Shown here piece by piece: positions 6,693-37,328 of a stretch of DNA of 39,691 nucleotides (position 1 is its first letter; every line of letters begins with the position of its first letter). The notes beneath the pieces were generated by a model. It saw only the letters and a program-made list of their open reading frames with translations. It searched no databases and was not told the DNA's origin. The position numbers and the translations under genes are program-made. Source of the stretch: Thermoanaerobaculia bacterium (GTDB lineage Bacteria > Acidobacteriota > Thermoanaerobaculia > Multivoradales > UBA5704); the NCBI GenBank assembly GCA_035603315.1, contig DATNKQ010000569.1:1-39691 (forward strand), given 5' to 3'.

Positions 6693-6759
6693 AAATTATC
6701 CTAGGCCAACTCCTGCACTGGCCCGATTCGGCTGGAAGAGCCGAGCGGGCAACGGCGAC

Positions 6760-7968: not shown

Positions 7969-7974
7969 CCTCTC

Positions 7975-8643: not shown

Positions 8644-8665
8644 ACTCACTCCGTCGCCACGATTC

Positions 8666-9628: not shown

Positions 9629-9652
9629 GCTCGAATCAGTCCGGAGAAATAC

Positions 9653-10795
9653 TTGCGGGTTCTGACTCTCAGCAACTCCCCGCTCGACGCGTCTCTCGGC
9701 TCGGGTTATGTCATTCTCGGTTATGCCGACGGTTTACGGGCGCGCGGCCACGAGGTCGACCTCCTGGGCCCTCCCGACTACGAGCCACTTCACGGCCTGG
9801 CCCGCGGCATCCGCTACAAACAGGCCCTTGGGATGGCCGCCGCGAGTGTGCGGCGCGTGGCGCGGGAGGCCTACGACGTACTCGAGTTCTACGGCGGAGA
9901 GGCCTGGCTTGCCATCTCACTGCTGACGCGAGTTCCCGGGCGGCGCTTTCTCGTGGTCTGCCACTCTAATGGCCTGGAGACGCATTGCGCCCAAGTCATG
10001 CGAGGGGCAGAAGAGCCGGTCGCGTTGCAGCACTGGTATCAGGTTCGCCACGAAGCACTTTTCGCGTGGGGCTTCCGCGGCGCCGATGCCATCGTCACCG
10101 TGGCCCAGTACGATCGCGACTACGCCTTGCGACGGGGTTACAAGACTTCCCGCCAGGTGATTGCGATCGACAATCCGCTTCCAGAGGCGTTCTTGGGTCT
10201 CCAAGTCGACTTCGAGCGCGGGCCCGTCATCGGCTATTGTGGCTCGTGGCTGCCGCGCAAAGGAGTCGACCTGATCCAAAGGGACATTCCTCCCCTCCTC
10301 CGTGAGTTTCCCGCTTGGCGTCTGGTCCTCGTCGGAGTGGGCTCGGGCTTCCGGGCCGAGGAACATTTTCCGGCCGATGTCCTGCCGCAAATTTCGGTCA
10401 TCCCCTACGCAGATCGCGAGACGGACCTACGCTCGCTCTATCAAAGCTTTGCTATCGCCATCGTCCCCTCTCTTTACGAGAGCTTCGGGTTGAGCGCCGC
10501 AGAGGCGATGGCTTGCGGCTGCGCGCTCGTCGCTACTCGTGTTGGCTTCTCCGCCGGCGCACGCGATGGTGAGGACGCGCTCCTGCTCCACGAACCTGTC
10601 TCGCCCTCACTCTATGGCGCGCTCAAATCTCTGATTGATGACGAAGGGCTGCGGGAGCGAATCGCCCGCGCCGGCTACCGGCGGGTACAGTCGCTGCTGT
10701 GGGACGACGCCATCACTGTTATCGAGTCCGCCTACCTTTGCTGGCTCGCGGAGCTGCGAGCCGCGGAGAGCAGCGTCGATATCCGGCGGAGCTGA
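9653..10795 (+). CDS. Glycosyltransferase family 4
   Basis: The TTG start gives MRVLTLSNSPLDASLGSGY...LRARGHEV. C-terminal ESFGLSAAEAMACGCALVATRVG. Confidence 0.85.
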   Translation: MRVLTLSNSPLDASLGSGYVILGYADGLRARGHEVDLLGPPDYEPLHGLARGIRYKQALGMAAASVRRVAREAYDVLEFYGGEAWLAISLLTRVPGRRFLVVCHSNGLETHCAQVMRGAEEPVALQHWYQVRHEALFAWGFRGADAIVTVAQYDRDYALRRGYKTSRQVIAIDNPLPEAFLGLQVDFERGPVIGYCGSWLPRKGVDLIQRDIPPLLREFPAWRLVLVGVGSGFRAEEHFPADVLPQISVIPYADRETDLRSLYQSFAIAIVPSLYESFGLSAAEAMACGCALVATRVGFSAGARDGEDALLLHEPVSPSLYGALKSLIDDEGLRERIARAGYRRVQSLLWDDAITVIESAYLCWLAELRAAESSVDIRRS

Positions 10796-10882
10796 AGGCG
10801 AAGGGGATCTTCCACGGCGCGCTACTCGGTCGAATTCCTGCGATACCTCCTCGGGCTTCGCGCTCCCCGCACGACGCTGACC

Positions 10883-11449
10883 TTGGCGGAGACCGCATTC
10901 CTCCGTTCCCTGGCGTCGGACCGCCGTTGCGCAATCGAGGTCGGTGTCTTCGAAGGGGCGACGAGCGCCGTGCTGGCCGAGGCGATGCCGCCCGAAGGGA
11001 CACTTTATCTGGTCGACCCTTACGATCTCGGTGTCCGGCTCGAGGGGTTGCTCGGATTTTCCTTCACCTGGTTCGTTGCCCAGAGATCCGTGCGTCCCTG
11101 GCGTCAACGGGTTCACTTCGTGAGAACGACGTCCTTCGAAGCTGCACTTTCCCATCCCCTCGATCGCCCGGCGGATCTCATCTTCGTCGATGCCGACCAC
11201 AGCTACGAGGCGGTGCGCCAGGATTTCTTGGCGTGGGCTCCGAAGCTCGTAACCGACGGCGTCATGGCGTTCCACGACAGCCGCTGCTGCCCGGCGCGGC
11301 CGGATCTCAACCCGAGTACCGGGCCCGTGCGTCTCATGAGCGAAATTCGACTAGGTCTCTTCGGATCCTGGGAGGTGACGGCCGAAGCGGACTCGCTGAC
11401 TGCGGTTGCTCCCTTCAACGGGCGGCGACCTGGAGAGAATCGGGGGTAG
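10883..11449 (+). CDS. Class I SAM-dependent methyltransferase (Methyltransf_24 / O-methyltransferase-3-like)
   Basis: CAIEVGVFEGATSAVLAEAM and LIFVDADHSYEAVRQDFLAWAPKLVTDGVMAFHD. TTG 10883 is the first canonical start in a frame that is open from 10796. Confidence 0.7.
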   Translation: MAETAFLRSLASDRRCAIEVGVFEGATSAVLAEAMPPEGTLYLVDPYDLGVRLEGLLGFSFTWFVAQRSVRPWRQRVHFVRTTSFEAALSHPLDRPADLIFVDADHSYEAVRQDFLAWAPKLVTDGVMAFHDSRCCPARPDLNPSTGPVRLMSEIRLGLFGSWEVTAEADSLTAVAPFNGRRPGENRG

Positions 11450-11482
11450 GTTGGCCTGAGACTGATCCAAGCCGTTCCCTAC

Positions 11483-12523
11483 TTGCCGCCGCCCGTCGAG
11501 GGCGTCGGAAGCTACGCCCTGGCCCTCGCCGCGGCGCTCTTGGAACGCTTCGGGACCACGACCCGGTTTCTGGTCGGCAATCCCACCTGGACCGATGGGC
11601 AGGAGTCGGCCGGCGGCTCCGTCCTGAAGGTGGCGGCGCGGAGCGCGGATGACCTGGCGGAGCTTCTGGGAGACTCGAGCGTCCTTCTCCACTACGTCAA
11701 CTACGGCTACCACCCTCTCGCCTGTCCCCTCTGGCTCGTCGAGGGGCTGCAGCGCTGGCGGGCGCGCGGCGGCGGGCGCCGGCTGACTACGATCTTCCAC
11801 GAGGTCTACGCCGGCGGCCCGCCCTGGCGGAAGGTCTTCTGGACTTCGCCCCTGCAGCGGAGGCTCGCGGCGACCCTGGCCCGCCGGAGCGACGAAGTCG
11901 CCACAACCCTGGAGCTGTACGCCCAGATGCTGCAGCCCTGGATCCCCGGGCGAGAGATCACCGTGCATCCCGTGTTCTCGACGGTCGGCGAGCCCGCGAA
12001 CCTCTCCCCTCTGCGGGAGCGAGTGCCGAGGCTGGTCGTTTTCGGCAGCTCCGGTGTACGCGGTCGAGCCTACACGGGATTCCGGCAGGCCCTTGCTGCT
12101 ACTTGCCGCGAGCTCGGGATCGAGGAAATCGCCGACATCGGCCCTCCCACCAGCGCAGCCTCTTCGCCCGTCGAAGGCGTACCCCTCCGCAGGCTCGGAA
12201 TGCTGTCCGCGGTGGAGGTGAGCCATCTACTGCGCAACTCGCTGGCCGGATTCCTTGCCTATCCGCAGCCGTTCCTGCCCAAATCGACAATCTTCGCGGC
12301 CTACTGCGCCCACGGCGTGCTGCCGATCTGCTCCTGGATTCCGAGGCGTGGGACCGGGACCCTGGGAAAGGAGCTCACCTACTGGGCGCCGGGGGGTCTG
12401 CCCATGAGGAGCGCCGACCTCCAGGCAGTCGCTTCGAGAGCCCATACCTGGTACTCGGGCCACACCCTCGCGCGTCAGGCAGCTCTCTTCCACGACCTCC
12501 TCGTCGCCGCGAACAGCCGGTGA
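11483..12523 (+). CDS. Putative glycosyltransferase (GT-B-like). The start is probably CTG 11456.
   Basis: N-terminus PYLPPPVEGVGSYALALAAALLERF resembles the GT-B Gly-loop region. There is no clear EX7E motif, so the family is uncertain. The stop overlaps the next gene's GTG. Confidence 0.5.
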   Translation: MPPPVEGVGSYALALAAALLERFGTTTRFLVGNPTWTDGQESAGGSVLKVAARSADDLAELLGDSSVLLHYVNYGYHPLACPLWLVEGLQRWRARGGGRRLTTIFHEVYAGGPPWRKVFWTSPLQRRLAATLARRSDEVATTLELYAQMLQPWIPGREITVHPVFSTVGEPANLSPLRERVPRLVVFGSSGVRGRAYTGFRQALAATCRELGIEEIADIGPPTSAASSPVEGVPLRRLGMLSAVEVSHLLRNSLAGFLAYPQPFLPKSTIFAAYCAHGVLPICSWIPRRGTGTLGKELTYWAPGGLPMRSADLQAVASRAHTWYSGHTLARQAALFHDLLVAANSR

Positions 12524-13545
12524 AGCTCCTCGTCTATTCGCCGGCGTTCCATCCGCGGATCGGCGGCCTGGAGATCAACATCGCTCATTTCGCCACCGAG
12601 GCTCACCGCCTGGGCTGCGAGGTCGCCGTCGTGACGACGACCGAGAACAGCGGCTCCGAACCCTTCGACTTTCCGGTGATCCGCCGTCCCTCGCCTGGCG
12701 AGCTGTTGCACTGGGCGCGCTGGTGCGACATCTTCTACCAGGCCAACGTCAGCCTGCGCGGCCTCTGGCCGCTGCTCTTCGTGCGCCGGCCGTGGGCGGT
12801 GTCCCACCATAGCTGGTACCGTCATGAAGGCGGACGCCTCGCCTGGCAGGACCGCCTCAAGCGCTTCCTGCTGCGCTATGCCGCAGCCTCGATCGCGGTG
12901 AGCGAGGCCCTCGCCGCCGACCTGAAGACCCCCACGACCGTGATTCCCAACCCGTACCGCGACAATCTCTTCCGGATGCTTCCCAACATCGATCGCGCGC
13001 GCGATCTCGTCTTCCTCGGCCGGCTTGTCTCGGACAAGGGGGTCGACGTCCTGGTCGAGGCCCTCGGGCACCTCGCCGATCGCGGCCTGCGGCCGGGCCT
13101 CACCATCGTCGGCGACGGCCCCGAGGCGCCGCGGATCCGCGATCAGGCCGAGCGGCTGGGGGTCTTCGGCCAGATCGACATGCTCGGCATCCGCACCGAC
13201 GAGGAGCTGGTGCGGATCCTCAACCAGCACCGGATCCTCGTCGTCCCGTCGCGTTACAACGAGCCGTTCGGCATCGTCGCCCTGGAGGGGATTGCCTGCG
13301 GTTGCGTCGTCGTCGGCTCGCGGGGCGGCGGGCTCCGGGAGGCGATCGGTCCCTGCGGCAGAACCTTCCCGAATGGCGACTCCGCCCAGCTGGCCGCAAT
13401 CCTCGCCGACCTTCTCGGCCATCCGGAGCGCTACCGCGCCTACCGGCACCTGGCTCGGCTCCACCTGGCCGAGCACGCCGGCGAGCGGGTCACTCGGCGC
13501 TACCTGCAGACGCTCCAGGCAACGCTCGACGAGAGAGCCGCCTGA
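12520..13545 (+). CDS. Glycosyltransferase family 4
   Basis: GTG 12520 (GTGA overlap) gives VKLLVYSPAFHPRIGGLEINIAHFATEAHRLGCEV. C-terminal EPFGIVALEGIACGCVVVGSRGGGLREAIG. Confidence 0.85.
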   Translation: MKLLVYSPAFHPRIGGLEINIAHFATEAHRLGCEVAVVTTTENSGSEPFDFPVIRRPSPGELLHWARWCDIFYQANVSLRGLWPLLFVRRPWAVSHHSWYRHEGGRLAWQDRLKRFLLRYAAASIAVSEALAADLKTPTTVIPNPYRDNLFRMLPNIDRARDLVFLGRLVSDKGVDVLVEALGHLADRGLRPGLTIVGDGPEAPRIRDQAERLGVFGQIDMLGIRTDEELVRILNQHRILVVPSRYNEPFGIVALEGIACGCVVVGSRGGGLREAIGPCGRTFPNGDSAQLAAILADLLGHPERYRAYRHLARLHLAEHAGERVTRRYLQTLQATLDERAA

Positions 13546-13548
13546 GCC

Positions 13549-14982
13549 ATGAGCATCCGGCTCATCGTCCTCGTCGTCGGCGCCGCGGCGGTGCTGTGGT
13601 CGATGGTCCGCTGGCGGCAGGCGGTACAGATCGGCATGGTCCTCGTCGTCCTCGAAGGAGCGATCCGCAAGTGGTTGGTCCCCGGCGCCCAGGACCTGGC
13701 CTACTTCGCCAAGGACGTCTTCTTCCTCGGAGCCTACCTCGGCTACCTCCGCAGCCCGGCACGGCTCCGTTTTCCTCCGGCGCGGCTGCCGGCTCTTTAC
13801 GTCACCCTCGGAGCCAGCGCCATCTTGGGCCTGCTCGAGATCTTCAATCCCGAGTTGCCCAACGTCCTGGTGGGCATCCTGGGGGTCAAGTCCTACTTCT
13901 TCTACGTGCCGTTGCTCTTCGTCCTGCCGGCGACCTTCCGATCGGACGTCGAGCTGGGCCGCTTCCTGCGCCGCTATGCCCTGCTCTCGATCCCTGTGGG
14001 GCTCCTCGCCCTGGCGCAGTTCTTCAGCCCTTCCTCGAGCGCCCTGAACACCTATGCACGAGCCAGCGACGAAGGGTACGTGACCACCTTCGGAAGCTCT
14101 AACTTCGTCCGCGTCACCGGCACCTTCTCCTATATCTCCGGCTATGCCTCGTATCTCTTCGCGACCGCCATCCTCATCCTGGCGATCCTGGGGACGATCG
14201 GCTGGCGCTTCAAGAGGAATCTCTGGATCTACCTCGCTCTCGGCATGACCCTCCTGGGCATGCTGATGACGGGGTCTCGGGGTCCCGTTTTCACCCTGAT
14301 CCTGCTCTTTCCCCTCTACTGGTGGCTAACAGTCGTTCGCGAGCGTCAGGGCGGTGCGACCCTCCCGCGCCTGGTCCTGGCCCTCGGCTTGCTCGCCGTC
14401 TTCCTTTCATATGCGGGGCCGCAGGCGATCGGGGCTTTCGAGGGTCGGGCGATGGGAGGGGAGGACACGCTATCCCGGTTCACCGCCCCTTTCACCTCTC
14501 CCTATGAAGTCCTCCCGGACGTCGGCCTCTTCGGCTACGGCATCGGCTCGACCCACCAGACCGCCACCGCCGTCACCAAGGGTATCGTGCCCTATAGCTG
14601 GCTCCGCGGCCTGGAGGTCGAGGTCGAGTCCGGCCGCGTCATGATCGAGTTGGGGCCGGTGGGCTTCGTCCTCGTCTATTTCGCACGCATCTACCTCATC
14701 TTCTTCGCCTTCCGCCAAGTCCTCGCGCTCTCCACCACGTTCCATCGTGCGGTCGCGACCGCCGCCTTCCTGTTCGTCCTCGCCGAGCTCCCCGGCGGCG
14801 TGGTCTTCGACCTCACCACCGACGTCTACTACTGGTTCTTCACCGCCCTGCTGCTGACGGTGATGCGGCTCGATCGGCAATTCCAGCCGCCCGCGAAGGG
14901 CGTTCCCGCGGCGATCCGACCCGTCCCCCTGGCACTGGCAACCAACCGCACGCTGCCGCCCGTCCCTTCGCCCGCGCGATGA
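13549..14982 (+). CDS. O-antigen polymerase/ligase-like membrane protein (Wzy-like)
   Basis: 477-aa polytopic membrane protein with LGMLMTGSRGPVFTLILL, a Wzy_C/O-antigen-ligase-like SRG loop. Sits in a glycan locus. Confidence 0.7.
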   Translation: MSIRLIVLVVGAAAVLWSMVRWRQAVQIGMVLVVLEGAIRKWLVPGAQDLAYFAKDVFFLGAYLGYLRSPARLRFPPARLPALYVTLGASAILGLLEIFNPELPNVLVGILGVKSYFFYVPLLFVLPATFRSDVELGRFLRRYALLSIPVGLLALAQFFSPSSSALNTYARASDEGYVTTFGSSNFVRVTGTFSYISGYASYLFATAILILAILGTIGWRFKRNLWIYLALGMTLLGMLMTGSRGPVFTLILLFPLYWWLTVVRERQGGATLPRLVLALGLLAVFLSYAGPQAIGAFEGRAMGGEDTLSRFTAPFTSPYEVLPDVGLFGYGIGSTHQTATAVTKGIVPYSWLRGLEVEVESGRVMIELGPVGFVLVYFARIYLIFFAFRQVLALSTTFHRAVATAAFLFVLAELPGGVVFDLTTDVYYWFFTALLLTVMRLDRQFQPPAKGVPAAIRPVPLALATNRTLPPVPSPAR

Positions 14983-16184
14983 AAGCTCTCGTGACCCACC
15001 CCGGCCGGCAGCATTCGCACCAAGCCGCCCTCGGTCTCCAGGCGGCCGGGATGCTCGCCGGCTACTGGTCCGGCGTCCCAGCACGGGCGGAGCAGGCGGG
15101 CCGTTTCCCGGCGCTCCTGCGGCGCCGCCTTGCACGCTACGCTGCGGTTCCACTCAAACCCGGCCGGGTCCGCTGGTTCCCGTGGACGCCGGCCCTGCGC
15201 CGCCTCGGCGACGCCTTGCTCCCCGCCGCCGGAGCCGCCTGGGTCGATCTCTTCGCCTGCCGGCTCTTCGATCGCTGGGCGGCGGGGCGCCTGCGGCGGA
15301 CGCCCCGGCCCCCGGACGCCGTCATCGCCTGCGAGATCTCGGCCCTGGCGACCTTCCGCATCGCCCGGCGGCAGGGCATCACCACGATCCTCGACGCCCC
15401 CTCGCTCCATCACCAGGCGCAGGACCGCCTCCACGGCACGACCGATCCGCCAGCTCTCCATCGCCGGGTCACCCGCATCAAGGATCAGGAGATCGCGCTC
15501 GCCGACCACGTCCTGACCGTCTCCGCGCTGGCGCGCGACACCTACGTCGAGGCGGGCGTCCCGGCCGGAAAGGTCCACGCCGTCGCGCTTGGCGCCGACA
15601 CCGAGCTCTTCGCTCCCGCCGGCGAGCCGCAGCCGGCTGAGGAGGGCTTCGTCTTCCTCTTCTCCGGCGCCACGATCCGCCGCAAGGGCTTCGACATCCT
15701 CTTGGACGCCTTCGCGCGGGTGCAGACGGCCGAGCCCAGCGCGCGTCTGCGGATCGTCGGTCCACGGGGAGACTTCGCGGGCCTCCTCGCCGGGCGCTCG
15801 TCCGCGGCGATCTCGGTCTCGGGGCCGGTCGGCCAGACCGAGCTGGCCGCGGAGCTACGCCGCGCCGACTGTCTGGTGCTGCCGTCCCGCAACGACTCCT
15901 ACGGCATGGTGGTGCCCGAGGCCCTGGCCTCGGGCCTGCCCGTCCTCGTCTCGGAGATGGTGGGCGCCAAGGAGCTGGTCCTGCCGGGGAGGAACGGCTG
16001 GATCGTCCCGGCCGGCGACGTCGGCGCCCTCGCCGAGCGGATGGTCTGGTGCGCCCGCCATCGCGAGGCCGTGCGCGGGATGCGGGAGGAGTGCCGGCTC
16101 TCGGCGGCAGACGCCACCTGGCCGGCCTACCATCGGCGGTTGATCGCGCTGCTCTCCGCCCTCGTGCCGCCGAGGCGGGCGTGA
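14979..16184 (+). CDS. Glycosyltransferase family 4
   Basis: ATGA overlap with the upstream gene. FLFSGATIRRKGFDILLDAF and DSYGMVVPEALASGLPVLVSEMVGAKELVLPGRNGWIVPAGD. Confidence 0.85.
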   Translation: MKALVTHPGRQHSHQAALGLQAAGMLAGYWSGVPARAEQAGRFPALLRRRLARYAAVPLKPGRVRWFPWTPALRRLGDALLPAAGAAWVDLFACRLFDRWAAGRLRRTPRPPDAVIACEISALATFRIARRQGITTILDAPSLHHQAQDRLHGTTDPPALHRRVTRIKDQEIALADHVLTVSALARDTYVEAGVPAGKVHAVALGADTELFAPAGEPQPAEEGFVFLFSGATIRRKGFDILLDAFARVQTAEPSARLRIVGPRGDFAGLLAGRSSAAISVSGPVGQTELAAELRRADCLVLPSRNDSYGMVVPEALASGLPVLVSEMVGAKELVLPGRNGWIVPAGDVGALAERMVWCARHREAVRGMREECRLSAADATWPAYHRRLIALLSALVPPRRA

Positions 16185-28557: not shown

Positions 28558-29364
28558 CTATTTGGTGACCGGAGCGGCCGCAGGAGCCGGAGCTGGGGTG
28601 GCCGGCGCCGGAGTGGCCGGGGCCGCCGGCTTCGGCGCGTTCTCGGCCAGCCACTTCTCGTAGTCGGCGCGCGACTCGACGACCAGGAAGCCGCGCATCC
28701 GGTAGTGGGAGAGGCCGCAGAGCTGGGCGCAGGCGATCTCCCAGTTGCCGGTCTTGTTGGGCTGGAAGTAGACCGGGATGACCTCGCCCGGGATGGCGTC
28801 CTGCTTGACCCGCATCACCGGCAGGGAGAAGCTGTGGATGACGTCCTTGGTGCTCAGCCGGACGAGCACCGGCTTGTCGACCGGCAGGTGGAGCTGGTTG
28901 ACGGTGGCGATGTCGTCTTTGCCCGCCGGGTCGCTGGGGTCTATCCCCAAGGGATTGGTGCCGGTCTCCATGAACTTGGGGTCGGTGCGGCCGAACTTGC
29001 CGTCCTTGCCGGGGTAGTGGACGTTCCAGGCAAACTGCTCGGCCACCACCCGCACCACCGTCGACTGATCCTCCGGCGGCGGGGTGTTGACCCGCCGCGC
29101 CCAGATCGGCACCGCGAAGCCGGCGAGAAGCAGCACCTCGACGACCACGATCGCCGCCTCCCCGTAGGTCGAGAAGTGTCCCTTCGCCCCTTCGTAGCTG
29201 GCGACCGGGTTGCGGCCCTTACGGTAGCGCACGAGGGTGTAGAGGAAGAACAGGCCCCAGCCCACGAAGAGGATGAGCATGAACCAGTGCACCAGCGCGA
29301 GCAGGGAGTCGAGCTCGGCGCCGTGGGTCGAGGCGTTGGGGGGAAGTCCCAGGAATCTCTCCAT
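28558..29364 (-). CDS. coxB: Cytochrome c oxidase subunit II (no fused cytochrome c domain)
   Basis: Two N-terminal TM helices. CuA site HSFSLP...CAQLCGLSHYRM (H, CxxxC, H, M). Pro/Ala/Thr-rich C-terminal tail. Confidence 0.9.
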   Translation of the reverse strand: MERFLGLPPNASTHGAELDSLLALVHWFMLILFVGWGLFFLYTLVRYRKGRNPVASYEGAKGHFSTYGEAAIVVVEVLLLAGFAVPIWARRVNTPPPEDQSTVVRVVAEQFAWNVHYPGKDGKFGRTDPKFMETGTNPLGIDPSDPAGKDDIATVNQLHLPVDKPVLVRLSTKDVIHSFSLPVMRVKQDAIPGEVIPVYFQPNKTGNWEIACAQLCGLSHYRMRGFLVVESRADYEKWLAENAPKPAAPATPAPATPAPAPAAAPVTK

Positions 29365-29640
29365 TTACTGTTTTCCTCCGTGAAGGACGCGCAGGTGCCG
29401 GACCGGTGGATCGAGCCGCTTCGCCCGCTGGCGGAAATCCCAGATGACCTTGCCGACCCCGAGGTAGATGAGCGCCACGAAGCCAAGAAGGGTGAGGATG
29501 CCCTTGTTCATGCCGTCGACCATCGGCGAGTCCGCCGCGCCGTAGCAGGTGGCGCAGGCGGCGGCCAGCCGGGGCAGGCCGAGCCCGGCCGCCGTCCCCA
29601 GCAGAACCGCGAGAACGCGAGCACGCCGTAGAAACTGCAT
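29365..29640 (-). CDS. Small membrane protein with signal-anchor, CxxC and one TM (91 aa)
   Basis: MQFLRRARVLAVLLGTAAGLGLPRLAAACATCYGAADSP...ILTLLGFVALIYLGVG. GGAGGA lies 7 nt upstream of the ATG. Its TAA directly abuts the coxB ATG. Confidence 0.5.
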   Translation of the reverse strand: MQFLRRARVLAVLLGTAAGLGLPRLAAACATCYGAADSPMVDGMNKGILTLLGFVALIYLGVGKVIWDFRQRAKRLDPPVRHLRVLHGGKQ

Positions 29641-29654
29641 CGCCGGATCCTCCG

Positions 29655-29870
29655 TCAATCCTCCGGGCCCATGGCCCGGAACTTCCGCCGCACCCGCACC
29701 CAGTAGACGAGAAGCACGATCCCTACCAGGAAGAAGAGCCCGGAGAGGGCGAGCCCGGAGGCGCCCTCGCCGGCGCGGAAGCTGGCGATCCCCCACACGC
29801 CGACCCATGCCGACAGGAGGATCGAGACGGCGATGAAGAAGACGTGGAAGGAGCGCAGCGACAGGCTCAT
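29655..29870 (-). CDS. Small two-TM membrane protein (71 aa)
   Basis: The ATG overlaps the subunit IV stop (ATGA). Two hydrophobic helices: FHVFFIAVSILLSAWVGVWGIA and LALSGLFFLVGIVLLVYWV. Confidence 0.5.
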   Translation of the reverse strand: MSLSLRSFHVFFIAVSILLSAWVGVWGIASFRAGEGASGLALSGLFFLVGIVLLVYWVRVRRKFRAMGPED

Positions 29871-30178
29871 CGGAGCATCCGCTGGTTCCAGGCCGAGAGC
29901 GACGGCGTCGACATCAGCACGGCGAAGAAGACGACGGTGAGGATGAGGATGCCGTAGATCGCCTTGCGCTCGGAGATGAGGTGCATGAAGTAGGCGGCGA
30001 CGAGCGACCCCTTGATGCTGGCGATCACCAGGGCGACGAGGATGGCCATTGGCGTCGACAGGTGGAGGTAGCTCACCGTCACCGTGACGAGGGTGAGCAC
30101 CGCCAGAGCGCCGAATACCGCCACGTAGATCCTGGTCTGCCGGCGAATCGAATCCGCGTCGTGCGCGTGCGCTTCCAT
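29867..30178 (-). CDS. Cytochrome c oxidase subunit IV (prokaryotic small subunit)
   Basis: The in-frame ATG 30178 has GGAGAG upstream. MEAHAHDADSIRRQTRIYVAVFGALAVLTLVTV...ASIKGSLVAAYFMHL is typical of the bacterial subunit IV family. Confidence 0.75.
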   Translation of the reverse strand: MEAHAHDADSIRRQTRIYVAVFGALAVLTLVTVTVSYLHLSTPMAILVALVIASIKGSLVAAYFMHLISERKAIYGILILTVVFFAVLMSTPSLSAWNQRMLR

Positions 30179-30198
30179 AGTCGATCTCTCCAAAGGCC

Positions 30199-30792
30199 CT
30201 AGAGAAGGTAGAGGGTCGGGAAGAGGAAGATCCAGACCAGGTCGACGAAGTGCCAGTAGAGGCCCGCCACCTCGATGCGGTTGGCGAAGCGCTCGGGGTC
30301 CTTCTTGAACAGCTTGGCCCCGGGCCCCCAGAAGTAGCCGTTGACGATCATCCCCCCCAGGACGTGCAGGCCGTGGAGGCCGGTCAGGGTGAAGTAGATG
30401 GCCAGAAAGGTGTTGGTCTTGGGGAAGTGATGGGTCTCGAATTTGTGGCTGTACTCGATGCTCTTGATGACCATGAATCCCAGGCCGCAGAGGATGGTGA
30501 GCCCCATGTAGAGCCGATACTTCTTGAACTCGTTGAGCTTGAGCGATGCCCACGACATGACCATGGTGACCGAGGAGCTGATGAGGATGAGGGTGTTGAG
30601 CGTCGCCAGCGGGACGCTCAGGCCCTCGTCGCGGCCGTGCGGCCAGGCGGGCGCGCCGGTGCGCAACAGGATGTAGGACGAGAAGAGGGCGCCGAAGAGC
30701 ATCACCTCGGAGGCGAGGAAAAGCCAGATTCCGAGCTTGGCGTTGAACACCCCGGTATCGGGCCGGGGCTCTACGGTGTAGGGAATGTCCAT
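30199..30792 (-). CDS. ctaE: Cytochrome c oxidase subunit III
   Basis: 197 aa. LGIWLFLASEVMLFGALFSSYILLR, YFTLTGLHGLHVLGGMI and YWHFVDLVWIFLFPTLYL. Confidence 0.9.
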   Translation of the reverse strand: MDIPYTVEPRPDTGVFNAKLGIWLFLASEVMLFGALFSSYILLRTGAPAWPHGRDEGLSVPLATLNTLILISSSVTMVMSWASLKLNEFKKYRLYMGLTILCGLGFMVIKSIEYSHKFETHHFPKTNTFLAIYFTLTGLHGLHVLGGMIVNGYFWGPGAKLFKKDPERFANRIEVAGLYWHFVDLVWIFLFPTLYLL

Positions 30793-30793
30793 C

Positions 30794-32560
30794 TCAGGCC
30801 TCCTGCCCTTGCGGCGTGAAGTCCGTCGCCGCGCCGGGGACGCTGTAGTCGTAGGGGCCGCGCACCACGGTCGGCAGATGCGGGAAGTTGCCGTGGGCGA
30901 TCGGCGGCGAGGGAGCGGCCGACCATTCGAGGGTGGTCGCCTCCCAGGGGTTGGAGCCCACCTTCACCCCCTTCTTGATGCTCCAGAAGAGGTTCCAGAT
31001 GAAGGGGATCTGGGAGAGCGCCAGGCACCACGCCGAGATCGACATGAAGACGTTCCAGTGCAGGACGCCCTGGGCGTGCGCGTACTGCTGGCCGCCGTCG
31101 TAGAGGCGCCGCGAGACGCCGGCCAGGCCGACGATGAACATCGGCATGAAGATGCCGTTGATGAAGACGAACGACAGCCAAAAGTGGATCCGCCCCAGGA
31201 CGTCGCTCATCTTCCGCCCGGTGATCTTGGGGAACCAGTAGTAGATGCCGGCGAACATGGCGAAGATCGTCCCCGGCGCCACCACGTAGTGGAAGTGGCC
31301 GATGACGTACATGGTGTCGTGCAGGTGGATGTCGGTCGGCGCGAGGCCGAGCGGCAGGCCGGTCAGGCCGCCGATGGCGAACATGGGCAGGAAGCCGAGG
31401 GCGAAGAGCATCGGCGTGGTGAAGCGGATGGAGCCTCCCCACAGCGAGATGACGAGGGCGGTGAGGATGACGACCGAGGGGATGGAGATGATCATCGTCG
31501 TCGTCTGGAAGAAAGTGCTCATCACCGTCCCCATGCCGGTCATGAACATGTGGTGCGCCCAGACGATGAAGGACATGAAGCCCAGGAAGACCGTCGCGTA
31601 GACCATCGAGCGGTAGCCCCAGAGCGGCTTCCGGGTGTTGTTGGCGATCACCTCGGCGACGATGCCGAAGGCCGGCAGGATGAGGACGTAGACCTCGGGG
31701 TGGGCGAGGAACCAGAAGAGGTGCTGCCAGAGGAGCGGGTTGCCGCCGCCGGTGTTGGCGATCGCCTGCCCGGAGACGATCAAGCCGCTGGGCAGGAAGA
31801 AGCTCGTCCCCGCCAGGCGGTCCATCATCTGCAGCACCGCCGCCGCCTGCAGCGCCGGAAAGGCGAGGAGGAGGAGGAACGAGGTCACGAGCTGCGCCCA
31901 GACGAAGAAGGGCAGCCGCATCCAGGTCATTCCCGGGGCGCGCAGCTGGACGATAGTGGTGATGAAGTTGGTGGCGCCGAGGAGCGAGGAGATGATGAGG
32001 AAGAGCATGCCGAAGAGCCAGGCCGTCTGCCCCGGGGGGGCGATGTCGGAGAGCGGCGGGTAGGAGGTCCAGCCGGACTGCGCGGCGCCGCCGGGGAGGA
32101 AGAAGCTTCCCAGCATGGTCACGCCGCCCAGGAAGTACATCCAGTAGCTCGCCATGTTGAGCTTGGGGAAGGCCATGTCGGGGGCACCGATCTGCAGCGG
32201 CACTACATAGTTGCCGAAGGCGCCCACGGCGAGCGGCACGATCCCCAGGAAGACCATGATGGTGCCGTGCATGGCCCCGAGCTGGTTGTAGAACTCGGGG
32301 AGCATGATGCCTCCGGCGGCGGCGCCTTGCGACAGGAAGCGGCCGATGAAGGGGATGGGCTGGCCCGGGTAGGCGAGCTGCCACCGCATCATCATCATCA
32401 GCGAGAAGCCGTAGAGGAGGAACGTCAGCGCGGTGAAGCCGTACTGGATGCCGATGACCTTGTGATCCTGGGAGAAGACGTACTTGCGCAGGAAGCTCAG
32501 CTCTTCATGAGCTTCGTGGCCGTGCCCGTGGGCCAGCCGCTCGTCGACCAATGCCGTCAT
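30794..32560 (-). CDS. ctaD: Cytochrome c oxidase subunit I (heme-copper oxidase)
   Basis: 588 aa. DHKVIGIQY, FFWFLAHPEVYVLILPAFG, VWAHHMF and HDTMYVIGHFHYV motifs. GAGGAGGAG lies upstream of the ATG. Confidence 0.95.
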   Translation of the reverse strand: MTALVDERLAHGHGHEAHEELSFLRKYVFSQDHKVIGIQYGFTALTFLLYGFSLMMMMRWQLAYPGQPIPFIGRFLSQGAAAGGIMLPEFYNQLGAMHGTIMVFLGIVPLAVGAFGNYVVPLQIGAPDMAFPKLNMASYWMYFLGGVTMLGSFFLPGGAAQSGWTSYPPLSDIAPPGQTAWLFGMLFLIISSLLGATNFITTIVQLRAPGMTWMRLPFFVWAQLVTSFLLLLAFPALQAAAVLQMMDRLAGTSFFLPSGLIVSGQAIANTGGGNPLLWQHLFWFLAHPEVYVLILPAFGIVAEVIANNTRKPLWGYRSMVYATVFLGFMSFIVWAHHMFMTGMGTVMSTFFQTTTMIISIPSVVILTALVISLWGGSIRFTTPMLFALGFLPMFAIGGLTGLPLGLAPTDIHLHDTMYVIGHFHYVVAPGTIFAMFAGIYYWFPKITGRKMSDVLGRIHFWLSFVFINGIFMPMFIVGLAGVSRRLYDGGQQYAHAQGVLHWNVFMSISAWCLALSQIPFIWNLFWSIKKGVKVGSNPWEATTLEWSAAPSPPIAHGNFPHLPTVVRGPYDYSVPGAATDFTPQGQEA

Positions 32561-32810
32561 CTACTCCTCCTCGATCGATAGGCCGGGAGGGGCCCGCGCG
32601 CCCCGGCCGATGGGCCGTGCGCAGGGAGAGGCGCCCGGCCCTCCGAAAAGGTCCGCGTTCCCGGCGTGTGCTGCACTGAAGAATTCCTACCGCTTCCGAA
32701 GTCTGCCAAAAAGGACGCCTGAGTCTACGACACCGAATCGGGCGCCGCAAGGCAAGAGTAGTGGCTCCATTTGGCCTCGCTGCGCTCCTTCGGGGGCGCG
32801 CCCCGGAAGT

Positions 32811-33587
32811 CTACTTCGCGGGCACCTTGGCGACCGCGGCGCCGTGGATCATCCGGGTGACGGGGTCCTGGAGGAAGGCGGCGACGCCGAGGTTGCCCCG
32901 CTTCCAGGTGGGGTCGAGCGCCAGGCTCACCGCGCCGGATTTCGCAGAGCCGGCGGCGGCGGGGAGCGTCAAAACCCTCGCCAGGCGCCGCACGACGTAG
33001 TCGTTCTGGAGCGTCTGGCGGGCGTTCTCGCCTGCCTTGACCGGCGTCGAGAGGCCGGTCTCGTAGAGGGCCACCAGGAGGTCGAGGTCGCGCCCGACGC
33101 CCCCAGCGAGGCGGGCGTCGGCCTCCACCCTGAGGCCTCCCGCCGCCGGCTCGACCTTCAGGCCGACCTGCCCGGCGGGCGCTGCCTTGAGGGCCTCGGC
33201 GATGCGCTGCCGGACCAGGCGCTCGTCGGAACCCACGCACTCGGTCTTGCCGTTGACCACGAGCTGCGGCGTGTAGATGCGATTCTCGCCCCACGCCCGC
33301 GCGTAGTCGTTCTGCCGCTTCGACCAGTCGGCGGAGGAGAAGGGGTCCTGCCAGCCGATGTAGTTCCAGTAGTCGACATGGAAGGCGAGCGGGATGACCC
33401 GCCCGGCGAGGTCCGCGTCGCCGGTCAGCCGGCTGAGCAGGCGGTCGGCCGGCGGGCAGCTCGAGCAGCCCTGGGAGGTGAAGAGCTCGACGACGACGGG
33501 GGCGGCGGCGCGCTCCCCGGCCGCCTCGCCGCGCGGGGCGGCGATGAGAGCGAGGGCGACGAGGGCAAGCGATGGGAGAGTCTTCAT
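32811..33587 (-). CDS. DUF1223-family secreted thioredoxin-like protein
   Basis: Signal peptide MKTLPSLALVALALIAAPRGEA. ELFTSQGCSSCPPADRLL...FHVDYWNYIGWQDPF is characteristic of DUF1223. Confidence 0.85.
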   Translation of the reverse strand: MKTLPSLALVALALIAAPRGEAAGERAAAPVVVELFTSQGCSSCPPADRLLSRLTGDADLAGRVIPLAFHVDYWNYIGWQDPFSSADWSKRQNDYARAWGENRIYTPQLVVNGKTECVGSDERLVRQRIAEALKAAPAGQVGLKVEPAAGGLRVEADARLAGGVGRDLDLLVALYETGLSTPVKAGENARQTLQNDYVVRRLARVLTLPAAAGSAKSGAVSLALDPTWKRGNLGVAAFLQDPVTRMIHGAAVAKVPAK

Positions 33588-33635
33588 GTTCTCAGTACGG
33601 CCGGCGCCGGGCTCGCGGATTCGCCGCCCCCAGAC

Positions 33636-35936
33636 TCAAGACGGGCTCCCGTCGCCACCGCCGGCAATCACCACCGCCTGGCTGCCATCGGCAGGCTTCA
33701 CCTGGCAGGCGGCGGAGAGCAGGCCGGGCTTGCCGGTCAGGAGCTGGGCGACGATCGACCCCAGTATGCGGCCCTGGTAGTCCTGGGCGATCAGCGACTG
33801 GATGCCCGAGAAGGCGGCGGCGACGTCGGCATAGGCGCCGCCCCCGCCGATGAAGCCGCCGAGGGCTTGCAGGGCCGAGCGGAAGCGCACGAAGAGGCTC
33901 CATGGGTTGACGGTCGCCGAGCCGGGGTTCCACAGGGTCTTGATGCCGTAGATCGCGAAGTTGCCCAGCTGGCTCCTGCCGAAGTCGAAGTTCTCGAGCT
34001 GGATGCGGTCGCCCGGGGAGAGCGGCGGCGCCAGAGCCGGGTTGGCGTAGGCGGGCACGGTGGTGAGATCCGCCGGGGAGTGCTGATCGAAGGCGGCCTT
34101 CGCCGGTCCCTGGTAGAGGAGCCGGCGCTGGGCGACGTTCTCGCGCAGGAAGTGGTCGCCGAAGAAGATGGGCGGCAGGGCTTCCGCCATCGCCTTCACC
34201 CAGACGGCCTCGAAGGTCGGCGCGGGAAAGAGCACGAGCTGGCGCACGCCGGCGTCGGAGACCCGCAGCTCGAGCTCCGCCTGCACCCGCTTGCCGAGCA
34301 GCGGCAGGAGAGCGGTCCTGAGGCCGGCCGCCTCTTCGCGGGCCACCACCCGCCAGACGTTGGCCAGATCGAGGATGGTGTGCAGGAGGTTGGCGTCCAG
34401 GACCGCGTTCCACATCCAGCTCAGGTTGATGAGGAACGCGAAGTCCGCGCCCTTGGGCGCCGGCGCGTAGTGGTCCATCGCCGCGGCGAGCTCGAAGGCA
34501 TACAGCTCTCGGTCTTTGTTCCAGCTCGACTGCAGGGTGCGCCGGCCATCGTAGCTCAGGCGGACTCCTTGAAGGCTCTTCTGCTCCTTGCGGTCCTCGT
34601 TGACGGTGAAGGTGCTGCCGGCCGCCCATTCGCCGATCGACAGCGCGACGCCGAAGGAGCGGCCGGTCTGCACCTCCCGGCTCTCCATGTATTCGCGGAG
34701 CAGGAAGGCGGGGTCGCCGGTCACCAGGCGCGCGGTGACGCCGGTCAGGTTCCCCAGGAGGAGGCCGTTGAGGAGAGGCGCCAGGCTGTCGGCGGAGGTC
34801 TCGAAACGGAGGATCGCCTGCGAGCTGGCGATGCGGGTGTAGCCGGCGGTGAAGACGAGCTTGATCTGCGTCGAGGCCACTTTCAGGAGCCCGGCCGAGA
34901 GCTTCGCCTCGGCGCCGTCGAGGCGGGTCTTCAGCGCCGCGAGCTGGTCCTGGGCGGGGGCCAGGCCGAGACGGGTGGCGATGGCCTGGGCGAGCGCCTG
35001 CTCGGAGGGATCGAGCTGCGTGAGGTTGGACACGCTGGAGAGCTTGCCGAGCAGCCCCTTGAAGTCCTGATACCGCGTGCCGAGCCGGCCGATCAAGTAG
35101 GAGTCGAGCAGGCCGGCGAGCTGGGCGGGGTTATCGAAGCCCACCTGTACCCCCAGGGAGGCGGTGGCGGCGGCGCTCGAGGAGGCGCTCTTCTGCACCT
35201 CGACGGCGATCTCGAGCTCCGTCCCGCGGGTGAAGACGAGGCGAAAGTCGTCGCTCGCCGTCAGGTTGGCGGCGACGTTCGCGCCTAGGTTGATCTTGTA
35301 GGCGGCGGCGCCGGTCATCCCCAGCACCTGGTCGAGGGCGGCGACGCTGCCGGCGAGCACGTCGGCATAGGTGAAGGTGGCCTGCATGGACAGCTTGCCA
35401 CTCACCAGAAAAGCCAGGGCGTCGCCGCCGGTTAAGGCGCGGATGCTCTTGATGTCGGTGGCGAAGCGGGCGCTCGCGATGGTCTCCAGCACCGCCTCCG
35501 CCACTTCGTCCGTGGCGGCGTGCTGCCGGTAGTCGAGGAGCCGCACGGCGGAGCTGGCGTCGATCCCGAACTGGACGCCCTGGAGCGCCCCGCCGCCGCT
35601 CGCCTGGACGGCAGCCTGGAGCTCGGTCTTGAGCCAGGCGCTGCCGGCGGCGGGCGCCGCGACGACGTCGTCGGGATCGGCGTCGGTGGGCTGGCGGAAG
35701 GCGTAGACGTGAAACCCACCCGAGGCCCCCAGCGAGAGCTTTGTGCCCTGGCCGAGGTTGAGCTGGTCGCTGCCGGTGAGGGTCAGCGGCGAGCCCGGAA
35801 GCTCGTTGGGGTCGGTGCCCGTCCCCGCCGGCAGGTTCTGGAAAGTCGTCTGCGCCACCAGCCCCGTCGCCAGCGCCGCCGCCGCGTCCTGGACGGCGAC
35901 CTTGAGATCCCCCAGATTGGTCTGCACGTTCGCCAT
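33636..35936 (-). CDS. Hypothetical protein, 766 aa, no recognisable domain
   Basis: ATG 35936 has AAGGAGG 6 nt upstream. Third codon positions are strongly G/C, as in neighbouring genes. No signal peptide, TM helix or catalytic motif recognised. Confidence 0.75.
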   Translation of the reverse strand: MANVQTNLGDLKVAVQDAAAALATGLVAQTTFQNLPAGTGTDPNELPGSPLTLTGSDQLNLGQGTKLSLGASGGFHVYAFRQPTDADPDDVVAAPAAGSAWLKTELQAAVQASGGGALQGVQFGIDASSAVRLLDYRQHAATDEVAEAVLETIASARFATDIKSIRALTGGDALAFLVSGKLSMQATFTYADVLAGSVAALDQVLGMTGAAAYKINLGANVAANLTASDDFRLVFTRGTELEIAVEVQKSASSSAAATASLGVQVGFDNPAQLAGLLDSYLIGRLGTRYQDFKGLLGKLSSVSNLTQLDPSEQALAQAIATRLGLAPAQDQLAALKTRLDGAEAKLSAGLLKVASTQIKLVFTAGYTRIASSQAILRFETSADSLAPLLNGLLLGNLTGVTARLVTGDPAFLLREYMESREVQTGRSFGVALSIGEWAAGSTFTVNEDRKEQKSLQGVRLSYDGRRTLQSSWNKDRELYAFELAAAMDHYAPAPKGADFAFLINLSWMWNAVLDANLLHTILDLANVWRVVAREEAAGLRTALLPLLGKRVQAELELRVSDAGVRQLVLFPAPTFEAVWVKAMAEALPPIFFGDHFLRENVAQRRLLYQGPAKAAFDQHSPADLTTVPAYANPALAPPLSPGDRIQLENFDFGRSQLGNFAIYGIKTLWNPGSATVNPWSLFVRFRSALQALGGFIGGGGAYADVAAAFSGIQSLIAQDYQGRILGSIVAQLLTGKPGLLSAACQVKPADGSQAVVIAGGGDGSPS

Positions 35937-36037
35937 CTCTCTCCTCCTTGCTCCTTCAAGATAAGAATGCGCACGCGCCGCAGAGACATCTGCGGGCACT
36001 GTCGACTCCTGAAGCTCGATTGGGTAGGGAGCTTACC

Positions 36038-36229
36038 TCAGGACGGGCGCGCCGGGAGCCCCGTTCTCCCTGCCCGGTAATCCTCCCGCGCCTCGGCGAT
36101 CGAGTCGACATAGGTCGGGGACGAGAGCGCCTGGAGATCCTCCAGGTAGTCCTCCATCGTCCGCCGCACCGTGTCCTCGATCATGGCGCGGAGCTCGTCG
36201 ACCGAAAGGTCCTTGACCGACGTTGACAT
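36038..36229 (-). CDS. Small acidic helical protein (63 aa); antitoxin-like in appearance only
   Basis: GGAGG lies 7 nt upstream of the ATG. MSTSVKDLSVDELRAMIEDTVRRTMEDYLEDLQALSSPTYVDSIAEAREDYRAGR. Starts 25 nt downstream of the GH13-like gene's stop. Confidence 0.6.
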   Translation of the reverse strand: MSTSVKDLSVDELRAMIEDTVRRTMEDYLEDLQALSSPTYVDSIAEAREDYRAGRTGLPARPS

Positions 36230-36254: not shown

Positions 36255-37328
36255 CTACCGCAGCCGGTAAACGCCGCTCCCGTGCGGCGGGAGGTGGAGA
36301 CGCCAGGCGCCGGGAGCGCCTTTGGGGGGCGGCAGGCCCGGCGAGGCGAAGAGCGCGTCGGGCATGCCGGCGACGCCGTAGGGACCCGCGTCCACCTCGC
36401 TCCCGCCCAGGTTGTGGACCACCAGCACCCGCTCCTTCCCCTCGTCGCGGAGGTAGGCCAGGATCGGCGTCGGAGCGTCGGCGGCGCTCAGGACCTTCAG
36501 GCTCCCTTGCCGCAGAGCGAGCGAGTTGTGGCGCGCCCGAATGAGATAGCGGTAGGTGCTCAGGAGCGAGTTGGGGTCCTTCGCCTCGGCGGCGACGTTG
36601 ACCCAGGGCATCGGCGTGCGCCGGACGTCGTCCCCCTTGCCTTTTCCGCTGGCGAGGCCGATCTCGTCGCCGTAGTCGAGCACGGGCGTCCCGGGAAGGG
36701 TAAGGAGGATGGCGGCGGCGCTCTTGCCGCGGCCCGCGTCGCCCGCGAGGCGGGTGGCGAGCCGCGACCCGTCGGCGGCGAGCAGGAGAGCTTCGACCGG
36801 ACCTCCGGTCTCCGCAGCCGCGAGGCCGGCGAGGCGTCGCGCGATGCCGCTCGCCTCCCCGGCCTTCACTCCCGCGACGATCTCGGCGGCGAGGTCCGGT
36901 TGCAGTCGCACCGGCAGCTCGTCGAGGCCCTCGACGACGATCCGCAGCCCGCGCTGCGTCCCTTCCGCCCGCAGCCGGCCGAGGTCGGGGTCGGCGGCCG
37001 TGGGGTGGGCGATGCCGCGCAGCCAGAGGGCGTCGACGCCGAGATCGGTCACCGTCTTGGGGTTGCCGTCGTTCAGGTAATCGAGCTCGCCGAGCAGCCC
37101 CGGGAGATCCCCCCTGCCGTCGCCGTTCGAGTCCGCGAAGCTGGGAACGAAGACCGTGTAGAGGACGGCGCCTCGCGTCCAGGGGCCCGCTGCAGGCGCC
37201 GTCTGGGGAGTCGCGGGCGTCGTCGCGGGAGCCGCGGCGGCGGCGATCCGAAGCGCGCCGTACGCCAGCAGGCAAGGGATCAGGAGATAGGGGAACGAAG
37301 GACGGGACCGGTTCGGCATGGCCGCCAT
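36255..37328 (-). CDS. Alpha-amylase-family (GH13)-like protein lacking the catalytic core, with a signal peptide
   Basis: The in-frame ATG 37328 gives MAAMPNRSRPSFPYLLIPCLLAYGALRIAAAAAP. GH13 N-terminal block YTVFVPSFADSNGDGRGDLPGLLGELDYL...LGVDALWL and C-terminal blocks ILLTLPGTPVLDYGDEIGL and RTPMPW. The region II/III segments are absent. Confidence 0.75.
   Translation of the reverse strand: MAAMPNRSRPSFPYLLIPCLLAYGALRIAAAAAPATTPATPQTAPAAGPWTRGAVLYTVFVPSFADSNGDGRGDLPGLLGELDYLNDGNPKTVTDLGVDALWLRGIAHPTAADPDLGRLRAEGTQRGLRIVVEGLDELPVRLQPDLAAEIVAGVKAGEASGIARRLAGLAAAETGGPVEALLLAADGSRLATRLAGDAGRGKSAAAILLTLPGTPVLDYGDEIGLASGKGKGDDVRRTPMPWVNVAAEAKDPNSLLSTYRYLIRARHNSLALRQGSLKVLSAADAPTPILAYLRDEGKERVLVVHNLGGSEVDAGPYGVAGMPDALFASPGLPPPKGAPGAWRLHLPPHGSGVYRLR

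Follow-up and report, generated by a model that had tools for sequence, protein, structure and literature searches.

A contig of 39,691 nucleotides (nt) from a Thermoanaerobaculia bacterium (DATNKQ010000569.1, assembly GCA_035603315.1; here the window) carries on its minus strand a gene for a 766-amino-acid (aa) protein. We conclude that this protein is a member of a large and ancient family, which has no name so far and is patchily distributed among taxa. The gene is real and looks expressed, and its product is a soluble cytoplasmic protein. The predicted alpha/beta fold is apparently new: a confident model resembles nothing in the PDB or BFVD. About 10% of the family representatives carry an N-terminal enzymatic head, which is either a cytoplasmic phospholipase C (PLC) or an Amidohydro_2 domain. 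Tentatively, we suggest that the common body binds a phosphoester ligand. The gene and its ribosome-binding site are as follows.

33636..35936, minus strand: sequence coding for the 766-aa protein, which belongs to a divergent, metagenome-only subfamily of a large unannotated family (from the listing of open reading frames, ORFs, codon-position GC and full-length alignment of homologues).

35943..35949, minus strand: Shine-Dalgarno-like AAGGAGG, 6 nt before the ATG at 35936, read from the sequence.

The minus-strand ORF spans 33636..35999, and the ATG at 35936 yields 766 aa. The N-termini of the two closest homologues (P0002 and P0003, MADGSVQLGDLK and MSNGAVPLGDLK) match the Met of the window protein, MANVQTNLGDLK. 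Because these homologues begin at the equivalent Met, the ATG is a likelier start than the upstream GTG. GC by codon position is 0.69/0.48/0.93 in the 766-aa gene and similar in the neighbouring COX1 and DUF1223 genes. Antisense to the 766-aa gene and to DUF1223 runs an Arg/Gly/Glu-rich plus-strand ORF of 892 aa (32610..35288). Its values, 0.91/0.51/0.69, mirror those of the real gene on the opposite strand, and therefore it is a shadow artefact of high-GC DNA. Thus the first-pass annotation, which had been made from the letters of the sequence, was correct in its coding call, in the ribosome-binding site and in dismissing the 892-aa frame; codon-position GC, the agreement of starts and the homologues all concur. 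The peptides which it quoted are all present in the protein. It had also noted a single Cys and the lack of a signal peptide, a transmembrane helix and a known catalytic motif. This was borne out. The protein has one Cys. The top Kyte-Doolittle average over 19-mers is only 1.33, which argues against a transmembrane helix, and a scan of 137 normal-length family members found a signal peptide or transmembrane-like segment in none of them.

The protein had been called an orphan; this was wrong. A word-indexed homology search with the single sequence already found 19 relatives. The wide alignment A2 retrieved the identical 19 proteins, i.e. this method badly underestimates the size of the family. 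An exhaustive hidden Markov model (HMM) search of 1.84 billion cluster representatives (50% identity level) identified 581 at E<=1e-3, of which 372 reached E<=1e-30. Nearly all of the 581 have lengths of 730-800 aa and align over their whole length. The window protein itself scored 593 bits against the family HMM (E 2e-179, full-length) and has kept the core residues D87, K103, Y136, D229, K249, Y366, R368, G429, G464, D523, W528, R604, Y608 and R723, while it differs at subfamily-specific sites. The second half of the earlier statement, a new family without a recognisable domain, held: no match to the 766-aa protein was found in Pfam, NCBIfam, PADLOC, PHROGs or the PDB sequences. The best candidate in Pfam-A 2025 was Trypco2 at E 0.55, with 11 bits against a cut-off of 24.2 and thus below threshold; NCBIfam 20.0 and a phmmer search of the PDB sequences returned zero matches each. 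The family profiles did no better against PDB chains (A1, best E 0.41 to gp41; A2, best E 0.14 to a designed binder). The 19 relatives, scanned one by one against curated families, gave isolated sub-threshold matches only. Trypco2 (E 0.55), HIV gp41 (E 0.4), the designed binder and an RNase HII match were discarded as noise. A confident match to a characterised family was sought by profile and by structure searches, and neither produced one.

The distribution of the family was examined with a degenerate three-motif DNA pattern built from the alignment. The pattern has a sensitivity of ~47% for known members, does not catch the window subfamily and, by our own calculation, should produce ~0.7 random matches. 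It located 63 loci among 185,579 species-representative genomes. Every locus with a called gene was verified by HMM and none was false. By record title, ~43 loci are from Acidobacteriota (Pyrinomonadaceae/Blastocatellia, Vicinamibacteria, Thermoanaerobaculia) and 14 from Myxococcota (eleven Corallococcus, Chondromyces apiculatus, Archangium and one Myxococcaceae metagenome-assembled genome, MAG). Two are from Bacteroidota (Spirosoma and a Cyclobacteriaceae MAG), one is from Gemmatimonadota and three are unclassified. Type strains with a family member include Corallococcus coralloides DSM 2259 (COCOR_00874/H8MK42), Spirosoma linguale DSM 74 (Slin_0593/D2QG50) and Chondromyces apiculatus DSM 436 (CAP_8642). 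Every member checked is annotated merely as hypothetical or uncharacterised. A literature search on type-strain locus tags and accessions (COCOR_00874, Slin_0593 and others) found no mention of them in the papers covered, and searches on Corallococcus together with bestrophin and on PF04185 together with PF04909 found nothing.

Structure prediction depended on the depth of the alignment. A first AlphaFold2 run with 19 sequences reached a predicted local distance difference test (pLDDT) of 54; it was unreliable and was kept out of the fold search. With 112 diverse family members the model (m9ed6efbfc585) had a pLDDT of 89.3, a predicted template-modelling score (pTM) of 0.87 and 541 residues at pLDDT >= 90. 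The following regions are predicted.

35136..35807, minus strand: N-terminal beta-rich region (aa 44-267), strands of 13-18 residues with two short helical inserts, pLDDT mostly above 90.

34722..35129, minus strand: helical region (aa 270-405), with a long helix (342-367) ending in Y366 and the invariant R368 (Y366-x-R368; family motif GFxYEYxR).

34623..34661, minus strand: conserved Gly/aromatic loop (aa 426-438, RSFGVALSIGEWA), family consensus AWGFxLGxGxW.

34401..34619, minus strand: second beta-sheet, made of four long strands (aa 440-512); G464, A485 and M487 are conserved.

33738..34394, minus strand: mainly helical C-terminal domain (aa 515-733) with the invariant or near-invariant residues D523, W528, R598, R604, Y608, R723 and G726.

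33657..33719, minus strand: C-terminal beta-hairpin (aa 740-760), from the secondary structure of the model.

The N-terminal region holds K103, Y136, H139, D192, D229 and K249, all invariant or near-invariant. The sole long stretch of low confidence, aa 424-438 with pLDDT below 50, coincides with the Gly/aromatic loop. Probably, this loop is flexible. The first-pass annotation had guessed mostly strands, interrupted by one helical stretch, for roughly the first 480 aa. According to the model this was partly right: ~50-267 and 440-512 are beta-rich, 270-405 is helical, and so is the C-terminal domain (515-733). A Foldseek match was considered significant at E<=1e-3 and a template-modelling (TM) score >= 0.5. 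In the PDB nothing reached E<=1e-3 (best E 0.89 with TM 0.08; all TM <= 0.11), and the same was true for BFVD (best 0.07). The non-significant top matches were large curved lipid-binding or membrane beta-sheets, i.e. LptD, porins, lipovitellin, ApoB100 and SPLUNC1. Like LptD, lipovitellin/ApoB and BPI/SPLUNC1, the family body has very long antiparallel strands. Yet at E 0.9-4.5, TM <= 0.11 and probabilities <= 0.04 there is no real similarity; in addition, those proteins are located in the envelope or secreted, whereas the family is cytoplasmic.

Which residues does the family conserve? At a pairwise identity of ~22%, R368 is the lone fully invariant column among the 112 sequences. Near-invariant are D87, K103, Y136, H139, D192, D229, K249, Y366, G429, G464, D523, W528, R598, R604, Y608, R723 and G726. 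The family signature reads AWLKY ... DDFxLVF ... GFxYEYxR ... WGFxLGxGxW ... DxAxxW ... RxxxxxRxxxY. A further conserved element is the following:

35667..35684, minus strand: acidic loop D85-A-D87-P-D89-D90, family consensus N-S-x-D-D-x-D-x-D-G, with D87 near-invariant.

DxDxDG is a classical calcium-binding motif. Of 192 sequences, 114 have D-x-D-x-D and 61 the full DxDxDG; in the window protein the loop reads D-A-D-P-D-D and lacks the Gly. Judged by its letters, the loop may be a DxDxDG-like, putative metal-binding element. The Gly/aromatic motif AWGFxLGxGxW is found in 112 of the 192 sequences and contains the near-invariant G429. The window subfamily comprises ~16 representatives with 30-49% identity, all from metagenomic contigs. 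The polar and aromatic invariant core is common to both subfamilies. In the window subfamily the polar core is kept, and replacements at Y104, Y364, W428F, W479Y, W612A and E651D are clade-wide; H389 (lost in half of the clade), D443 and R466 are variable. As several near-invariant aromatics are replaced in its subfamily, the ligand or the partner of the window copy may differ.

The strongest functional lead comes from natural fusions. The clearest of these, with a PLC, suggests a connection with the chemistry of phospholipids or phosphoesters. Of the top 150 representatives, 23 were over-length. Twelve of them have an N-terminal Amidohydro_2 domain, three a PF04185 domain and one is a truncated amidohydrolase fusion. 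The PF04185 heads (relatives P0069, P0092 and P0094) are exclusively N-terminal. They are the same type of domain as in plant NPC4 and bacterial PlcH-type enzymes and are nearest to true PLCs (NPC4, PDB 8hav, E 6.6e-28; bacterial PLCs, 1e-19 to 1e-25; acid phosphatase, 5e-6). The domain begins at residue 7, which leaves no room for an export signal; consequently the head is cytoplasmic. This differs from the known bacterial PLCs of PF04185, which are exported. In sequence and in fold, the family body resembles neither the PLCs nor the DUF756 domains at their C-termini. The commonest head, Amidohydro_2 (PF04909; ACMSD, LigW, LigJ), has kept an intact HxH motif at residues 6-8. In a profile search these heads were remotely related to ACMSD/LigW-type enzymes (E 1.7e-7), and they differ from the solved members by this distance and by a helical insertion of ~130 aa. 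An alternative assignment as a TatD-like DNase (E 0.004) was rejected, the profile search having placed the head nearest to the ACMSD type. The window protein contains neither a PF04185 domain nor an Amidohydro_2 head.

A different kind of length variation was seen in four representatives of 940-976 aa (P0101, P0130, P0142 and P0163). In their helical region, ~200 aa are inserted behind family position ~348. A weak Apolipoprotein A1/A4/E match (E 2e-4) in one insertion-bearing member was dismissed as noise.

How might such a body work? We tentatively favour a binding or scaffold module which engages an anionic phosphoester ligand, most plausibly a phospholipid of the membrane, and works together with hydrolases, whether these are fused to it or encoded separately; we consider this possible, not probable. 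The ~750-aa body would then not be a classical enzyme. The ligand would be contacted by a charged and aromatic set of residues (D87, K103, Y136, D229, K249, Y366, R368, D523, R598, R604, Y608 and R723), with the acidic DxDxD loop and the flexible Gly/aromatic loop helping to engage it, presumably at the inner face of the cytoplasmic membrane. In ~10% of the family the hydrolase would be supplied in cis by the signal-less N-terminal PLC or by the Amidohydro_2 enzyme. In a few lineages it would be encoded next door, as a phospholipase D (PLD)-like, PhoD-like or 4HBT thioesterase protein. Most members, the window copy among them, have no linked hydrolase; here the body would act alone or with a partner encoded elsewhere. 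The neighbours in question are close. A same-strand PLDc_2 gene starts 15 nt downstream in L078, a locus of the window subfamily; same-strand PhoD genes are 26 nt away in L014 and 149 nt in L038; and in Pyrinomonadaceae the 4HBT gene is located 23-28 nt upstream, again on the same strand. We favour binding or scaffolding because of the PLC fusions, these PLD, PhoD and thioesterase links, the invariant core rich in Arg, Lys and Tyr, and the acidic and flexible aromatic loops. The lipid-protein-like top Foldseek matches to the model may be taken as a hint in the same direction, and as a hint only.

Several points weigh against a phospholipid-binding module. Lipid or membrane binding by the body is a property which we infer, and the Foldseek matches to lipid proteins are statistically meaningless (probability <= 0.11). 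Each phosphoesterase association comes from 1-3 lineages out of ~25 independent contexts. Since the 89 immediate neighbours in the bulk scan belong to 65 different Pfam families, coincidences of such size are expected. Phosphofructokinase (PFK), alpha-amylase and several peptidases recur about equally often. The commoner head is nearest to small-molecule decarboxylases and hydratases, and we know of no lipid substrate of ACMSD/LigW-type enzymes. The invariant Asp, Lys, Arg and Tyr residues fit a new enzyme equally well. Finally, the window subfamily is without part of the DxDxDG loop and several of the conserved aromatics. A broader formulation is no more than possible, too: the new-fold body might sense a membrane lipid or some other phosphoester ligand, or else a sign of infection or stress, and direct or gate hydrolases of the PLC, amidohydrolase and PLD/PhoD type.

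Alternatively, the family could be an immune or conflict protein in which the body is the sensor and the interchangeable N-terminal heads, a PLC that degrades the membrane or a metal-dependent hydrolase, are suicide effectors, as in single-protein abortive infection. We regard this as rather unlikely. Where the head is missing, as in the window copy, the effector would have to be the body or a partner encoded elsewhere. The architecture follows the logic of the single-protein anti-phage systems covered by PADLOC, i.e. a large constant body with alternative, swappable enzymes at the N-terminus, and the PLC head is cytoplasmic. Defence-type genes are located next to two of the four fusion loci, in both cases divergent from the fusion gene: a ThsB-like TIR gene in L009 (2083..3183, minus strand; PADLOC E 6e-8) and a PDC-S01 candidate defence gene in L011 (875..2041, minus strand; AAA_14/DUF4143, E 1e-50). 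A TPR-CHAT gene lies ~4.6 kb downstream of the family gene in L001. The very patchy distribution (63 matches in 185,579 species genomes by a pattern with ~47% sensitivity) and the deep divergence, with ~22% identity between clades, would also suit an immune protein. So would the comparison of the window with L001, where the family proteins are 49% identical and the neighbouring DUF1223 proteins 66%. On the other hand, none of the PADLOC-DB v2 families matched the window protein, a canonical member or any of the four fusion proteins, and unlike the anti-phage systems the family has no nucleoside triphosphatase, STAND or other known sensor domain. No copies were detected in IMG/VR viral contigs (pattern scan), INPHARED phages or PLSDB plasmids. 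Most neighbourhoods, that of the window included, are of a housekeeping type (cytochrome c oxidase (COX) operon, PFK, GAPDH, aminotransferases, glgC/glgA). The other two fusion loci are not defence-like; their neighbours are glycosyltransferase, methyltransferase, COX and glgC/glgA genes. Among Corallococcus species, and likewise among Pyrinomonadaceae, the gene order is stable. The Amidohydro_2 head is ACMSD-like, neither nuclease- nor TatD-like, and ~90% of the members have no effector head at all.

To a similar degree we doubt that the family is a new cytoplasmic enzyme for a carbohydrate, a sugar phosphate or another phosphoester, with the invariant Asp, Lys, Arg and Tyr residues as active site and the linked genes in the same pathway. 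That a dozen charged and aromatic residues are invariant, or nearly so, at ~22% identity would be in line with catalysis. Sugar and phosphate metabolism do appear next to the family gene: PFK adjoins it directly in L001 and in Thermoanaerobaculaceae, a GH13 alpha-amylase is located 58 nt upstream in L050 and L059, glgC/glgA are near one fusion member, and a phosphoribosyl pyrophosphate synthetase is upstream in L041. The PFK, GH13 and synthetase genes have the orientation of the family gene and are tightly linked to it. Amidohydro_2, moreover, is a typical family of small-molecule metabolic enzymes. Upstream in the window, a 357-aa gene (36255..37328, minus strand) has a signal-peptide-like N-terminus and matches alpha-amylase and SusG_C of Pfam only faintly, as a degenerate remnant of a secreted GH13 enzyme would. 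Yet a relation between this gene and the amylases of L050 and L059 was not detectable (E 0.004). The body has no likeness to any known enzyme fold, and among 89 neighbours so few recurrences would be expected by chance. Several positions that are near-invariant elsewhere have been lost in the window subfamily (D443, R466 and, in half of the clade, H389), which would be odd for a catalytic site.

The first-pass annotation had proposed a pore-forming, secreted effector or structural protein, whose beta-rich half would refold or insert into a membrane. We found no positive evidence for this and consider it very improbable. The model does predict long amphipathic strands followed by a helical C-terminal half, the general layout of gasdermins and MACPF proteins, and there is a conserved Gly/aromatic loop. 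Occasional same-strand peptidase genes directly upstream (S8 in L010, S9 in L048, astacin in L061) recall protease-activated pore-formers. However, Foldseek against the PDB, which includes gasdermins and MACPF, returned no significant match to these or to MACPF/CDC, aerolysin, Cry or Tc toxins; the only membrane attack complex component listed was 8b0g_I (E 4.3, probability 0.01). A signal peptide was present in 0/137 members. The peptidases are from unrelated families and occur at ~3 of ~60 loci only, and neither a consistent protease nor a secretion system was found among the neighbours. Bacterial gasdermins are about one third the size of the family protein. Last, that the 766-aa frame is a chance ORF of high-GC DNA, in which long false frames like the opposite 892-aa one do arise, is virtually out of the question and is refuted by its in-frame GC of 0.93 at third codon positions (GC3), its Shine-Dalgarno site, the full-length homologues by the hundreds (581 clusters, conserved motifs, four phyla) and a confident structure prediction driven by coevolution.

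If the structure prediction holds, a sizeable and ancient family of at least 581 clusters (50% identity) in four soil-dominating phyla has a fold without a solved relative. It has no name and no Pfam or NCBIfam model, and we found no literature on it. Many comparable dark families exist. This one is experimentally tractable: cultured type strains carry members, and the natural fusions to a cytoplasmic PLC and to an amidohydrolase offer concrete assays. Once the family is defined, a set of Acidobacteriota and Myxococcota genes would no longer have to be annotated as 'hypothetical protein', and either a new lipid-handling module or a new immune architecture could come to light. Should the broader formulation above be true, we would be dealing either with a new system by which soil Acidobacteriota and Myxococcota remodel lipids or with a new class of single-protein immune sensors.

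The same-strand flanks of the gene are those which had been described before:

36038..36229, minus strand: 63-aa acidic ORF, the upstream neighbour, without a significant family match.

32811..33587, minus strand: DUF1223 gene with signal peptide, 48 nt downstream (PF06764, E 7e-62).

Searches of Pfam, NCBIfam, PADLOC and PHROGs gave no significant match to the 63-aa ORF, which lies between the amylase-like gene and the family gene. A GC3 of 0.88 points to a coding frame. A constant companion, as had been considered, it is not: in the 81 fetched loci a homologue was found on the window's own contigs alone and at no other family locus, and we rejected it as a family partner. DUF1223 was rejected as a partner as well. 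Among the 81 loci it adjoins a family member elsewhere only in L001, the closest relative with genomic context, and this is local synteny. In the comparison of identities between window and L001 given above (DUF1223 at 32811..33587 and 14425..15150, respectively), 49% against 66% indicates that the family gene evolves faster than its DUF1223 neighbour. In L001 a 629-aa gene without a Pfam match (12317..14206, plus strand) is situated between the family gene and DUF1223; it was rejected as a family paralogue (hhalign probability 0.2%).

Genes were called at all loci and the neighbours were clustered. Conservation was limited to lineage-specific synteny, and a universal partner did not emerge. 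In Corallococcus the order is FAD/NAD oxidoreductase, an unknown 450-aa gene, family gene and bestrophin. In Pyrinomonadaceae it is 4HBT thioesterase, family gene and an opposite-strand ATE_C gene, and in Thermoanaerobaculaceae a divergent PAS/GAF histidine kinase, family gene and PFK. Each recurrent neighbour, seen at 2-4 loci of partly related lineages, is about what chance and shared ancestry give. Considering the variety of Pfam families among the neighbours, adjacency to PFK, alpha-amylase, PhoD or peptidases was therefore rejected as significant alone.

Some minor observations were made on the loci. In L010 (6224..14631) the family gene may be part of an operon, in which it follows an S8 peptidase gene and precedes three short unknown genes of 228, 43 and 134 aa, two genes for DUF3616 proteins and one for a protein with a CHAP domain. 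In L038 and L057, too, the 228-aa gene is a neighbour of a family member. Both the window (28558..32560) and the unrelated PLC-fusion locus L079 (15341..18618) have a cytochrome c oxidase operon only a few kb away from the family gene, which is probably a coincidence. The COX1 of the window is identical to one deposited under a Thermoanaerobaculia MAG, so that the window is of acidobacterial origin. At ~4000..15000 of the window GC falls from ~0.72 to 0.59-0.67 and GC3 of the called genes from ~0.9 to 0.73-0.79. There, glycosyltransferase- and methyltransferase-like proteins, as judged from N-terminal sequences, are encoded beside an asparagine-synthase-like gene. Probably, this segment is a horizontally acquired cluster for polysaccharide biosynthesis.

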